A DNA stretch of 64,000 bases from assembly GCA_951406725.2 (NCBI GenBank), contig OX597816.1:13454001-13518000 (forward strand), read 5' to 3'. Within the stretch, counting starts at the first letter, position 1, and each line of letters opens with the position of its first letter. Position numbers and translations under genes: made by a program. This document shows, piece after piece, positions 13,099 through 57,745 of the stretch. Source of the stretch: Octopus vulgaris (taxonomy: Eukaryota). Under the pieces are notes generated by a model. The model was not told the origin of the DNA and searched no databases. It worked only from the letters and a program-made list of their open reading frames with translations.

Positions 13099-13315
13099 TT
13101 ATCATCCAGACACCGATACACGTCTTAATTTACAAAGATATTTGTGTACGCAAAAATACTATGAACTAATAAGATTACCAACTATTTTTAGTGGGAGGAA
13201 ATATTTTAATATGTTATATCATTAAATCTTATATGTTTATAAACTTACTACGATTCTAATTAAATCAGAATATTTTATAGAATTATTTCTAAACTAAGCT
13301 GAAACTATCATTGCT

Positions 13316-13533
13316 CTTTGCTCTTTAACTCTTTTACTTGTTTCAGTCATGACTGTGGCCAGGCTGGAGTACTGCCTTTAGTCGAGCAAATCGACCCCAG
13401 GACTTATTCTTTGGAAGCCTAGTACTTATTCTATCGGGCCCTTTTGCCGAACCGCTAAGTTACGAGGACGTAAACACACCTAGCATCGGTTCTCAAGCGA
13501 TGTTGGGGGACAAACACAGACACACAAACATAT

Positions 13534-13578
<45 letters not shown>

Positions 13579-13721
13579 TACGACGGACTTCTTTCAGTTT
13601 CCGTCTATCAAATCCACTCACAAGGCTTTGGTTGACCCGAGGCTATAGTAGAAGACATTTTCCCAAGATGCCACGCAGTGGGACTGAACTTGGAACCATG
13701 TGGTTGGTAAGCAAGCTACTT
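13316..13721 (-). mobile_element. SINE family A lacking its first ~23 nt (A-box), fused to the 3' end of an ORF1-like element
   Basis: Match to SINE-A stops at AAGCTACTT (13721), where ACCACACAGCCACTCC is expected. Confidence 0.88.
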
Positions 13722-14090
13722 TGTTTCATTTCATTTGCCATAGAGGCAGTACAAAGATGGGTAGCTTTGCGGACTGGACAAGACATTGATGAGGCGAATG
13801 ATAATAATACAAGATGATAAGGATGGGAGAAAACAGAAAGCGCCCGCCGACCTTCTGCTTCTCTATAACATTGTTCTTTTAATAACCCTCTTACAATTTA
13901 CAATATTTTACAATTTTTTGGACTAAGAAGTCCATTACAATTTAAAACACAATAAGACACATATTGAGGCGAAGAACCTCTTACCTCAAGTCCCCGATTA
14001 ATTCTCTTGCAACCTGCAGGCATCCCTGCATCTGCAAGTCGGGGTCCCAAGAAAGTAATCTATAATCTTCCCTTGGGAAGGAACCTGATG
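13722..14090 (-). mobile_element. 3' end of a gag/ORF1-only retroelement, copy 1 (ORF C-terminus plus 3'UTR)
   Basis: Minus strand encodes SGSFPREDYRLLSWDPDLQMQGCLQVARELIGDLR* (stop at about 13981-13983), homologous to the end of the ORF at 24286-24400. The 3'UTR shares blocks with 24034-24285. Confidence 0.7.
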
Positions 14091-14565
14091 TGTGAAATGA
14101 ATCATACTACATTGAGATTTGACTCATTCTTTCTTGTTTCAAGTTTTCTTTCATTACTGATTTCATTAATGACAGTCATAACCATTTTCCTCTTTCCAGT
14201 CTTTTTGTGTTTTTCCATTTTTATTTACTCGGTTTTCCTATTTCTATGTGAATAGAACTGAGGAGTTATCAACTTTTCTTTTGAACTGTTTTATTTCGTT
14301 TGAATCTGATGATTCTGATTTAAGTCTCTATTTTCATCAAATCTGTAATAAAAAAGCAGCCTAGCTTTTGTATGATCATGGTTTCGATTCTCGCACCGGT
14401 AGTGTGTTGTATTTTTGAGAAAATCATTTAACTTCATGTTGTTCCAGCTTACTGAACTATATATGGGTTCCAGCAATAGCTGGAGATTTAAGCCTACGAT
14501 GGACATTCAGGGGGAATGCGTTATAGTCTCATTCCCTCATACTTTATGAAACCCAAGGTAAACTC

Positions 14566-14796
14566 CTATTTCTTTATTGCCCACAAGGGGCTAAACACAG
14601 AGGGGACAAACAAGGACAGACAAACGGATTAAGTCGATTATATCGACCCCAGTGCGTAACTGGTACTTATTTAATCGACCATGAAAGGATGAAAGGCACA
14701 AGTCGACCTCGGCGGAATTTGAACTCAGAACGTAATGGCAGACGAAATACCGCTAAGCATTTCACCGGGCGTGCCAGCGTTTCTGTCAGCTCGCCC
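14566..14796 (-). mobile_element. SINE family B
   Basis: Family-B body; imperfect TSD CCA(A/G)GGTAAACTC. Confidence 0.88.
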
Positions 14797-23644: not shown

Positions 23645-24033
23645 ACTCTTACTCTTTAGTCTTTTACTTGTTTCAGTCATTTGATTGTGGCCATGCTGGA
23701 GCACCGCCTTTTAGCCGAGCAAATCGACCCCAGGACTTGTTCTTTGTAAGCCTGGTACTTATTCTATCAGTCTTTTTTGCCGAACCGCTAAGTTACGGGG
23801 ACGTAAATACACCAGCATCGGTTGCCAAGTGATGTTGGGGGACAAACACAGACACACAAACATATATACACACACATACACACACATATATATACGACGG
23901 AGTTCTTTCAGTTTCCGTCTACCAAATCCACTCACAAGACATTCGTCGGCCCGAGGCTGTAGTAGAAGACACTTGCCCAATGTATCACGCAGAGGGACTG
24001 AACCCAGAACCATGTGGTTGGTAAGTAAGCTAC
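23645..24033 (-). mobile_element. SINE family A lacking its first ~25 nt (A-box), fused to the 3' end of an ORF1-like element
   Basis: Match to SINE-A stops at AAGCTAC (24033), within 2 nt of the breakpoint at 13721. Confidence 0.88.
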
Positions 24034-24932
24034 ATTATTTGAAAAATGTTGCCACTAAGGCATTACACAGAGTAGCTTTGCGGGCTGGGCAGGAACATTA
24101 ATAAGATGAATGATAAAAAAGATGAAAATGATATTGATGGGAGAAGACAAAAATGCCCGCCGATTTTTGCTTCTCTAATATATTATTCTTTTTTTTAAAC
24201 ACAAAATGAGGTATTAAACCTCTTACGTTAATTTAACAAATCTTTTGTCTTTCACACGAAAATGAGGCAATAAACCTCTTACACTTTACTGAGACATTAA
24301 TAATCTTGCAGCCTCCTGGTAACGGTGCAGCCGCACTTCGGGTCTCCAAACAAAATAATTGAAATCTTTCTTCGAATAGCACGTTGCTATTCGAAGAAAA
24401 TCATCTTCTTTCATCAACAGTGCCACCACCTGCGGCGGCCAATGATAAGTACCAGTACAGGCCAATTCTATCAGGTCCTGCCCCACCAGAAAACTCCTTA
24501 CGAAGTTTTCAACAACCCCTCCCTTGAAATAGAATACCACATATTCTTTAATTTCACTGGGAAGGTCCACCTCTTCCGCTGTCGGTGGCACGATTCCCAC
24601 CGAAGAGACCTCGGGACATGCCGGAGGTGTGAAATGCACACCTCCGGCACTGTCTCATTCTTTTTTTCTTTTCTTTTTCAACTTTGTTGCGGGAGGGGCT
24701 GGCTCCTTCGCCATATCCTCAGGAACCTCGCCTCCACCCGCAACCTTGGGATCCCTCGGGGAGCAACCATTGTTGCTCCCATTCTTCCTCTTTCTTCCCC
24801 TTTTTCCGGGGGAAGTTACTCCCTCCTCATCCATCTCTCCTTCCGGAAGAGGAGGGGGAGTTCTGCCACAACTAACTGCTCCAGGACTCTGCTCTGGTCC
24901 TGGGGACAGTTTTTCTTAATGTGGCCAGATTC
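24034..24932 (-). mobile_element. 5'-truncated gag/ORF1-only retroelement, copy 2 (zinc-knuckle end, P/E/K-rich linker, ~100-aa C-terminal domain, 3'UTR)
   Basis: Minus strand reads ESGHIKKNCP (second half of a CX2CX4HX4C knuckle), one frameshift, PGPEQSPG..KKKRKKE*DSAGGVHFTPP..KDFNYFVWRPEVRLHRYQEAARLLMSQ* (stop 24286-24288), then a ~250-nt UTR with no endonuclease or RT ORF. Confidence 0.72.
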
Positions 24933-24959
24933 CTAGCCACTGGGCCATTGCGCCTCCAC
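24932..24959 (-). mobile_element. Isolated 28-nt SINE-C head (A-box only)
   Basis: Minus strand GTGGAGGCGCAATGGCCCAGTGGCTAGG matches the family-C 5' end and stops just before GCAGCGG. Confidence 0.8.
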
Positions 24960-50220: not shown

Positions 50221-51100
50221 AAGGCGGCGAGGTTGCAGAATCGTTAGCACGCCGGGCGAAATGCGTAGCCGTATTTCGTCTGCCGTTACGTTCCGAGTTC
50301 AAATTCCGCCGAGGTCGACTTTGCTTTTCATCCTTTCGGGGTCGATAAATTAAGCACCAGTTTCGCACTGGGATCGATGTAATCGACTTAATCCGTTTGT
50401 CTGTCCTTGTTTGTCCTCTCTGTGTTTATCCCCTGTGGGTAGTAAAGAAATAGGTATTTCGTCTGTCGGTACGTTCTGAGTTCAAATTCCGCCGAGGTCG
50501 ACTTTGCCTTTCATCATTCCGGGGTCGATAAATAAAGAACCAGTTTCGCACTGGGATCGATGTAATCGACTTAATCCGTTTGTCTGTCCTTGTTTGTCCT
50601 CTCTGTGTTTATCCCCTGTGGGTAGTAAAGAAATATGTATTTCGTCTGTCGGTACGTTCTGAGTTCAAATTCCGCCGAGGTCGACATTGCCTTTCATCCT
50701 TTTGGGGTCGATAAATTAAGAACCAGTTTCGCACTGGGATCGATGTAATCGACTTAATCCGTTTGTTTGTCCTTGTTTGTCCTCTCTGTGTTTATCCCCT
50801 GTGGGTAGTAAAGAAATAGATATTTCGTCTGTCGTTACGTTCTGAGTTCAAATTCCACCGAGGTCGACTTTGCCTTTTATCCTCTCGGGGTCGATAAATT
50901 AAGAACCAGTTACGCACTGGGGTCGATGTAGTTGACTTAATCCCTTTCTCTGTCCTTGTTTGTGCTCCCTGTGTTTAGCCCCTTGTGGGTAGTAAAGAAA
51001 TAGATATTTCGCATTGGGGTCGATGTAATCGACTTATTCCCTTTCTCTGTCCTTGTTTGTCCCCTCTATGTTTAGCCACTTGTGGGTAGTAAAGAAATAT
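50221..51100 (+). mobile_element. SINE-B concatemer: one head, four ~183-bp units and one deleted unit
   Basis: Unit starts at about 50271, 50454, 50637, 50820 and 51004. Confidence 0.92.
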
Positions 51101-51869
51101 ATATTATTTTTATTCATAAGGTGTGGTAATTAGAAAATATGAATTGAATTGATCTCATAACACAGAATTCAATACGCTAAAGTTGTTGCCATTTGTGAGT
51201 TACATCAACACAACGTACACACATCAATATGACATTTCAGATATTCTGGAAAGGATGGAGATACGCTCATTACTTTGTGATTCAGTATTAACGATCCAGC
51301 ATCATCAAAAGTGGATCATAAACTCAGCTAAACGAAATATAAGCAGCAGAGCCACCGTAAGGGACGAATGTGCAATATTTCCTCATACAATTCGCAGTGG
51401 ACTTGACTTTGATAAGAAAATGGCGTTATATTTCAAGTGGACAATAGAGATGAGGAAATGCAAACGAACCATGAGAGAGGAACGTTCAATAAACGTGCAT
51501 GTAAAGCTGGGCTTCTTTCTCCGAACTGAAAAACACTAAAAAACACATATTAGTGATTTCTGTAACTGAAATAAGGTAGAAATAACAACGTACCTGAATA
51601 TTCAATGATAATAATTATGAAATGCCTTACGTAGGCATATTGAATGATAGCTTATAGCATCTATATTTCGTATTGTGTTCTATATTTATTTATTGGACAT
51701 TTCTCCAATATTGCAGGTTTACTTAAAAGCAACGAATATATTAATGCTTTGTGCCGAAATATGCTGAGCTCATAAACTAATACAGAAATCTACAGAGGCG
51801 CAAATCCTGCTCCTCCGCACATCCCTACGGTCGACACGAGTATCTGAAATTTAAAGTCTGTTTTGCGCG

Positions 51870-57348: not shown

Positions 57349-57745
57349 AAGGCGGCGAGCTGGGCGAAATGCCTTGCGGTATTTCGTCTGCCGTTACGTT
57401 CTCAGTTCAAATTCCGCCGAGATCGACTTTGCCCTTCATCCTTTCGCGGTCGATTAAATAAGTACCAGTGAAACACTGGAGTCGATATAATCGATTTAAT
57501 CCGTTTGTCTGTCCTTGTTTGTCCCCTCTGTGTTTAGCCCCTTGTGGGTAGTAAAGAAATAGGTATTTCGTCTGCCGTTACATTCTGAGTTCAAATTGCG
57601 CCGGGGTCGACTTTGCCTGTCATCCTTTCGGGGTCGATAAATTAAATACCGGTTACGCACTGGGGTCAATATAATGGACTTAATCCTTTTATCTGTCCTT
57701 GTTTGTCCTATCTATGTTTAGCCCCCTGTGGGCAATAAAAAAAAG
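57349..57745 (+). mobile_element. SINE family B dimer
   Basis: Junction AAAGAAATAG|GTATTTCGTC near 57563; TSD ATATATGATACACATA. Confidence 0.88.

Follow-up and report, generated by a model that had tools for sequence, protein, structure and literature searches.

The question raised by this locus is why a retroelement should carry, shortly before its 3′ end, a motif complementary to the sequence into which it is inserted. Two such copies lie in the analyzed stretch of Octopus vulgaris DNA (64,000 nucleotides, called the window hereafter). The sequence-only reading of the window had offered two answers: that the motif guides the element to its target by pairing with the displaced strand, or that the chimeric transcript rebuilds a tRNA D-stem. 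The features on which it was based are there, as inverted matches between motif and target and stem-loops with differing loops are present in both copies (Table 1), the end of the motif lying 41 nt from the junction in copy 1 and 38 nt in copy 2. Both copies have a broken 5′ end and only ORF1, and are passengers of a LINE family of L1/Tx1 type with a fixed insertion site in the head of a tRNA-like SINE. Copy 1 has lost its 5′ part, the matches to two other loci stopping at 14097, and neither a SINE head nor a duplication was found in its upstream flank; the last two A of its A-rich end are also the first bases of the target-site duplication. The ORF1 part of copy 2 corresponds to residues 192-357 of ORF1 (tblastn). 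At its 5′ end this copy is joined to the head of a different SINE (SINE-C), cut near the position that corresponds to the insertion site in SINE-A, whereas the 3′ end of the copy lies in SINE-A; a deletion, a template switch and a two-site event are all possible readings of the junction.

Table 1. Positions of the two element copies and adjoining features in the window
Feature	Position	Strand	Remark
Target SINE (SINE-A) body without head, downstream of copy 1	13314..13719	-	
Copy 1, 3′ junction with target GTAGCTTGC	13711..13719	-	plus strand: GCAAGCTAC, 13711-13719
Copy 1, A-rich end	13720..13735	-	AACAAA here, AATAAA in the family
Copy 1, ORF1-only passenger: end of ORF1 and 3′ UTR	13722..14097	-	88% to L244
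Copy 1, stem-loop TGCC-TCTAT-GGCA	13736..13748	-	
Copy 1, 3′ UTR motif CCGCAAAGCTAC	13761..13772	-	one bulged A against target GTAGCTTGC; plus strand: GTAGCTTTGC(GG), 13761-13770(72)
Target SINE body without head, downstream of copy 2	23648..24033	-	
Copy 2, 3′ junction with target GTAGCTTAC	24025..24033	-	plus strand: GTAAGCTAC, 24025-24033
Copy 2, passenger: broken ORF1 from the zinc-knuckle region, and 3′ UTR	24034..24931	-	
Copy 2, stem-loop TGCC-TTAGT-GGCA	24050..24062	-	
Copy 2, 3′ UTR motif CCGCAAAGCTAC	24072..24083	-	plus strand: GTAGCTTTGC(GG), 24072-24081(83)
SINE-C head of 28 nt that adjoins copy 2 at its broken 5′ end	24932..24959	-	

The element family and its target SINE

A first look at family size gave 1836 candidates by the UTR (40 scored) and 12,312 by ORF1 (150 scored). 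The full-length passenger measures ~2.2 kb and has a single ORF of 413 aa, and the autonomous partner, of ~5.4 kb, has ORF1 and an ORF2 of 1150 aa with endonuclease, RT and zf-RVT domains. In the ORF2 of one autonomous copy (L111) these domains scored 5e-12 (Exo_endo_phos), 1e-27 (RVT_1) and 1e-8 (zf-RVT), and the top PDB match was human L1 ORF2p (8.5e-67; R2, 6e-20). With an N-terminal APE endonuclease and an RT, duplications, 5′ truncation and no LTRs, the autonomous partner is an L1-group non-LTR retrotransposon. Its Tx1 membership is likely, judging by its target specificity and by a domain layout that we take to be that of Tx1; searches for named Tx1 reference sequences returned none. The zf-CCHC knuckle of ORF1 scored 20.8 bits in the autonomous element (at the cut-off) and 16.7 bits in the passenger (below it). 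Protein searches with ORF1 gave two Octopus sinensis matches, the closest named protein being 64% identical, and no relatives among longer proteins, while ORF2 had one unnamed relative.

Passengers and autonomous copies share their 3′ end, which consists of TGCC-N5-GGCA and an A-rich tail. The stem-loop is intact in 101 of 114 passenger ends; its loops vary, and its stem is 99.5% paired and shows no covariation. Pair counts were limited to this small stem because the MAFFT alignment of 55 ends misaligns the motif through indels. The 3′ modules recombine between subfamilies (L276). Both kinds of element also occur together in head-to-tail arrays at the same site with a spacing of ~2 kb (L130, L113 and G000:C1:223694766-223706806). 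Several unrelated 5′ UTRs are found in one subfamily, and 5′ ends retain relic target bases from earlier donor sites (L342-L348, L032, L054, L062).

Both kinds of element insert in the SINE head at TGTGTGGT/AAGWAGCTTGC, where the slash marks the insertion point. The target 9-mer, or a near variant, was found at the 3′ junction of 30/30 young loci selected by ORF1, and the family has more than 20% of its flanks in one repeat, which is how target-specific families are delimited in PMC4494074. Many copies are 5′-truncated. The duplications begin at AAG and are mostly 6-18 nt long (50 paired junctions), against 14-25 nt in off-target insertions. Since they start at AAG, we infer that the bottom strand is nicked after ...GCTACTT; the motif would then match the primer in sequence and complement both the top strand and any RNA that reads through. 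The SINE exists in an older variant, GAAG (13 of 72 intact heads in the sampled loci; divergence 14.6% in GAAGC copies), and a younger one, GTAGC (54 of 72; divergence 8.2%). No tRNA was found in the sequence with ARAGORN or Rfam; an octopus CORE SINE, OR2, is mentioned in PMC4758252. Two T-type elements (L018 and L112) have a GAAGC duplication on the 5′ side and a GTAGC duplication on the 3′ side, possibly through overwriting by read-through RNA or through mutation. Overwriting of the 3′ duplication was unsupported in two other loci with hybrid flanks (L342, L343), which have GAAGC on the 5′ side too.

A second abundant SINE (14565-14795 in the window and other copies; L131-L147) ends in GCCCCTTGTGGGCAATAAAGAAAT, which is nearly the 3′ end of the non-targeting LINEs. 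Some of its copies occupy the SINE-A site (L164, L274), in L118 one is joined to the targeting tail, and tandem 183-nt repeats made of it occupy 50221-51104 and 57359-57743 of the window. The non-targeting relatives (L131-L159) end in AATAAAGAAAT, and the older target (L165) reads AATAAA/GAAGC. The insertion site may have been acquired through tail homology with the ends of these relatives. A sister LINE family whose endonuclease is 63-66% identical had three of its five seen copies in one other repeat, beside a short hairpin (L151, L338, L341, after AATAAAGAAAT), with no obvious complementary UTR motif, and is possibly a second target-specific family.

Conservation of the motif and covariation with its target

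The sequence-only reading had ranked the motif among the best-conserved blocks of the UTR, and the family bears this out. CCGCAAAGCTAC is a 12-nt exact match between copies 1 and 2, among the longest exact blocks of their alignment. Its core, AGCTW(A)C, is present in 104 of 114 passenger 3′ ends, a count biased upward because many loci were retrieved with motif-containing patterns; ten other short patterns reached 68-99 of 114. The ends of autonomous ORF2s gave a tree with a targeting clade of 27 rows (SH-aLRT 99), of which 26 carry the motif, and nine outgroup rows without a junction at this site; AGCTWC was found in 0/13 of the non-targeting relatives within their last 300 nt. The distance from motif to stem-loop is ~10 nt in passengers and ~45 nt in autonomous copies. 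The match in single copies is less striking. For the 200 nt that precede the stem-loop, we compared the best duplex with the flank of the same copy against dinucleotide shuffles; its stability was matched by 12/200 for copy 1 and 27/200 for copy 2; fold z-scores were −0.87 and −1.15 for these two, and single-copy folds were not unusually stable (z −0.05 to −1.21). One copy by itself barely beats chance and the two together are weak evidence; it is the family-wide covariation that raises the match between motif and target above it.

A test for that covariation had also been proposed, with SINE-C as an example of an alternative target. The covariation held, whereas the alternative target did not: the SINE-C junction pattern had three exact matches in the genome, a search that diverged cases could escape, and none was an element or carried an element 3′ end. 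The covarying target is instead a variant of the same SINE, GAAGC or GTAGC. With the target base left free, elements with AGCTTC were followed by GAAGC in 87, GTAGC in 8 and another sequence in 4 of 99 cases, counted by eye among the 100 listed of 112 matches after one reverse-strand row was dropped. Those with AGCTAC were followed by GTAGC in 92 and GAAGC in 8 of 100, again by eye and among the matches listed (489 in total). Starting from the target, we found 236 GAAGC junctions, 30 of which were fetched and included 12 TTC-type copies, 3 TAC-type copies and 11 of a lineage without the motif. Autonomous copies with AGCTTCTT were in GAAGC in 10 of 11 cases. Among 40 diverged autonomous loci selected by likeness of the endonuclease, 14 had readable junctions, 13 in GTAGC and one in GAAGC, and none had TTC. 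We set aside a Fisher p of 9e-36 for the association, as it counts clonal copies as independent.

On the trees, a TAC/GTAGC clade is nested within a TTC/GAAGC clade (support 100). The passenger tree, built from 86 of 139 distinct ends and excluding short ends and all but four of the youngest subfamily, has four motif changes (one of them a recombinant) and seven target changes, and the autonomous tree has five and four, respectively. Independent switches are few, ~3-4 in passengers and 4-5 in autonomous copies. A contrast test on four independent pairs of these clonal copies, a number that cannot reach significance, gave 2.4 in the same way, 0.1 in the opposite way and 1.5 without difference (sign test p 0.5). 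Age or timing by itself is an unlikely cause of the covariation, because the lineages in GTAGC (end branches 0.03-0.08) are no younger than the GAAGC-inserted T1 copies and most C copies (0.01-0.04), and because GAAG heads make up 13 of the 72 intact SINEs. The compensatory evolution of motif and target concerns a single pair of bases and is strong when copies are counted; we regard it as probably real, if phylogenetically thin.

Two explanations would account for this pattern without a function for the pairing. In one, no pairing is selected, and either base simply happens to be carried by a handful of lineages that differ in endonuclease preference or in period of activity. The few independent switches, the non-significant contrast test, the recombining 3′ ends, the coexistence of autonomous lineages and the weak single-copy statistics would all suit it, but the change is an exact compensation at the exact paired base, seen in passenger and autonomous UTRs that differ in sequence and spacing; the four plus five motif changes mostly come with matching target changes, and the motif was gained together with targeting. 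We consider this explanation unlikely. In the other, the motif was copied from the adjacent target by fold-back or quasi-palindrome template switching and tracks it without function. Motif and flank do form an inverted repeat ~40 nt apart in every genomic copy, and a snap-back of the reverse transcriptase would be a plausible origin for the motif. Such copying is nevertheless decidedly improbable: no TTC-corrected copy of C type was present among the 100 listed of the 112 AGCTTC matches, against 38 uncorrected copies, and bulges and extra bases persist through whole subfamilies.

The motif and the choice of site

From the strong association between motif and target, one might suppose that site selection works by pairing of the motif to the target's top DNA strand. 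Having the sequence of the primer strand, the motif would fit the displaced strand, and in duplex energy the intact target, which reaches across the nick into the upstream GGT, beats the 3′ junction for 24/24 autonomous motifs; for 80 passenger motifs the intact target is favored in 48 and the junction in 23. The extra pairing comes largely from TTCACC, which aligns with TTGACC in a non-targeting sister family, so this extension is older than targeting, and its value as proof of top-strand pairing is weakened by the homology. Two natural exceptions speak against a guide. Subfamily C has the mismatched TAC motif GCAAAGCTACTTTAC (38 matches), which fits GTAGC better by ~4.7 kcal/mol, and still 28 of the 30 fetched copies are in sites of GAA/GAG type and only two in GTAGC, the site of its nearest relatives. 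This subfamily accounts for six of the eight exceptions among the listed AGCTAC matches. The second exception is a lineage with AGCTWC in 0/30 copies within the 350 nt before the anchor (35 matches, 30 fetched). By script, 25/30 of its copies are at the site, and by eye two more; of the remainder, two lie in the SINE but have lost bases at the junction, and one is off target. It uses both variants, 12 GTA and 11 GAA, sorted by sub-lineage. A substitute pairing of this lineage with positions +12 to +28 of the SINE looked favorable in a single fold but was rejected: across 11 copies, 7-185 of 200 shuffles matched it, as did 10/200 for a non-targeting control.

The motif is thus neither needed nor sufficient for the choice of site, and the guide-like targeting proposed from the window alone was not supported; we consider it quite unlikely that top-strand pairing selects the site. 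The choice of SINE variant appears to be inherited by the lineage, through the read-through of the donor and/or the endonuclease of the partner, because subfamily C and the motif-less lineage sort independently of the motif. Autonomous lineages of both kinds coexisted, so the endonuclease may set the site. By eye, no endonuclease residues sorted with GAAGC and GTAGC, in a comparison with the one broken endonuclease found for the GAAGC lineage.

Proposed pairing in the read-through transcript

At a probability of about 0.5, the reading we favor is that, within the RNA of the element, motif and read-through target sequence pair as a stem under the TGCC-N5-GGCA hairpin. Pairing in a chimeric transcript had been suggested from the two copies, and the predicted folds agree with it. 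When 57 chosen 3′ ends were folded with 16 nt of flank, the target paired with the motif region in 52, and swapping the variable target base cost energy in 47, made no difference in 3 and brought a gain in 7, six of which had been chosen as discordant. In the mismatched subfamily C the predicted stem extends into its own tail, and in one autonomous copy (L259) the best fold lacks pairing between motif and read-through. Cleavage of transcripts takes place 10-30 nt downstream of AATAAA; with this signal at the end of the element, the target would stay in the RNA. Contigs from four sequencing runs, presumed to be RNA, gave thin cover of the element with no end or strand visible, and one crosses the 3′ junction.

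The transcript would then pass the terminal AAUAAA and run ~10-25 nt into the SINE, and motif and read-through would close a stem of 7-11 bp beneath the hairpin and so mark out or shield the end used for priming. Once the endonuclease had nicked the bottom strand, the read-through could swap the motif for a primer of identical sequence, and reverse transcription would begin at the end of the element. The variant used by a lineage would be set by inherited read-through and/or the partner endonuclease, and the motif would follow through selection for pairing. Any benefit must be modest, because subfamily C spread with a mismatch and the motif-less lineage without a motif. A later pairing with the displaced top strand, stabilizing in effect, is possible.

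The motif could also pair with target-derived sequence at the 5′ end of the RNA and circularize the transcript. There are 5′ junctions with RNA-templated target bases (CTAAC over a TTA-type 3′ flank in 5/7 such young copies), relic CTTCC or AGCTTGCTTCC at the 5′ ends of copies in GTAGC sites, a doubled AAGTAGCTTTGCTAAC in one copy (L036), and the upstream GGT is kept at the 5′ junction. Three 5′ relics (L370, L377, L379), on the other hand, reach +10 but leave out the covarying base at +2, which suggests that the start of the RNA often lies beyond that base, and the 3′ partner is 40-80 nt away while the 5′ one is at 2-5 kb. Both points make circularization distinctly improbable. Least credible is the rebuilding of the SINE's tRNA D-stem, the second of the original proposals. 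The target includes what we presume, from tRNA layout, to be the 3′ strand of that stem, and GCUA in the motif resembles the SINE's GCUG. The pairing of 7-11 bp, though, goes beyond a 4-bp D-stem and would consume the next arm, GCTG is identical in both SINE variants while the motif changes, and no tRNA fold was detected, all of which leaves the proposal very improbable.

Read-through that anneals to the nicked strand has precedents: it has been shown for R2Ol (PMC6530143) and for R2Bm, from its structure (PMC10499050), and has been proposed for SART1, through an internal GGUU/AGG, and for R1Bm (PMC7265360, citing work on R1Bm). In all four, the RNA segment complements the bottom (primer) strand. 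The octopus motif has the opposite polarity: it is the complement of both top strand and read-through and covaries with the target. Non-targeting relatives in this genome end in a similar hairpin (GCCC-CTTGT-GGGT). LINE reverse transcriptases recognize 3′ stem-loops, for example in UnaL2 and ZfL2. The octopus hairpin resembles these in its short stem and 5-nt loop just before the 3′ end, but the element differs from them in a second, longer predicted stem that requires flanking target sequence.

A more elaborate form of the read-through reading, which we hold to be rather unlikely, is that the RNA 3′ end acts at the nick as a hairpin copy of the target duplex in a double strand exchange. The primer strand would go to the read-through, and the freed motif would take the displaced top strand together with the upstream GGT, a swap that would run downhill. 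The bridge RNA of IS110, a bacterial recombinase system, sets specificity through a target-binding loop. The likeness is one of analogy only, in that an RNA has two segments able to pair with both target strands; unlike in that unrelated system, the octopus motif by itself does not set specificity. If the double exchange were true, an L1-type LINE would be retargeted by altering its motif and its read-through jointly, and an animal retrotransposon would contain a natural device for RNA programming with two arms.

Insertion into other transposons is known from Tx1 families with passengers, namely Tx1L in Tx1D, Tx1-Mar with SINEU, and Tx1-9_AMi (PMC4494074). The octopus family is like these in combining a LINE with APE endonuclease and RT, a fixed site in a mobile element and passengers that share the site; it is unlike them in that its target is a SINE head and its passengers retain the whole of ORF1. 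The available text of PMC4494074 describes no target-complementary UTR motif for those systems, and attributes the target specificity of APE-type LINEs usually to the endonuclease. The repeat annotation of O. vulgaris lists 13 recently active L1-Tx1 families, and the word "target" is absent from its available text (PMC13282606). In the open-access literature we found no target-complementary, covarying internal UTR motif of opposite polarity. The system may extend the biology of target-specific LINEs. Here, as the target changed by one base, a sequence in the RNA of the LINE changed with it, both among autonomous elements and among passengers. The same genome holds natural controls (a subfamily with a mismatched motif, a lineage that lacks the motif and sister families that do not target the site), which open to testing the long-standing question of how much the nuclease, and how much inherited read-through and RNA-target pairing, contribute to where a LINE inserts.
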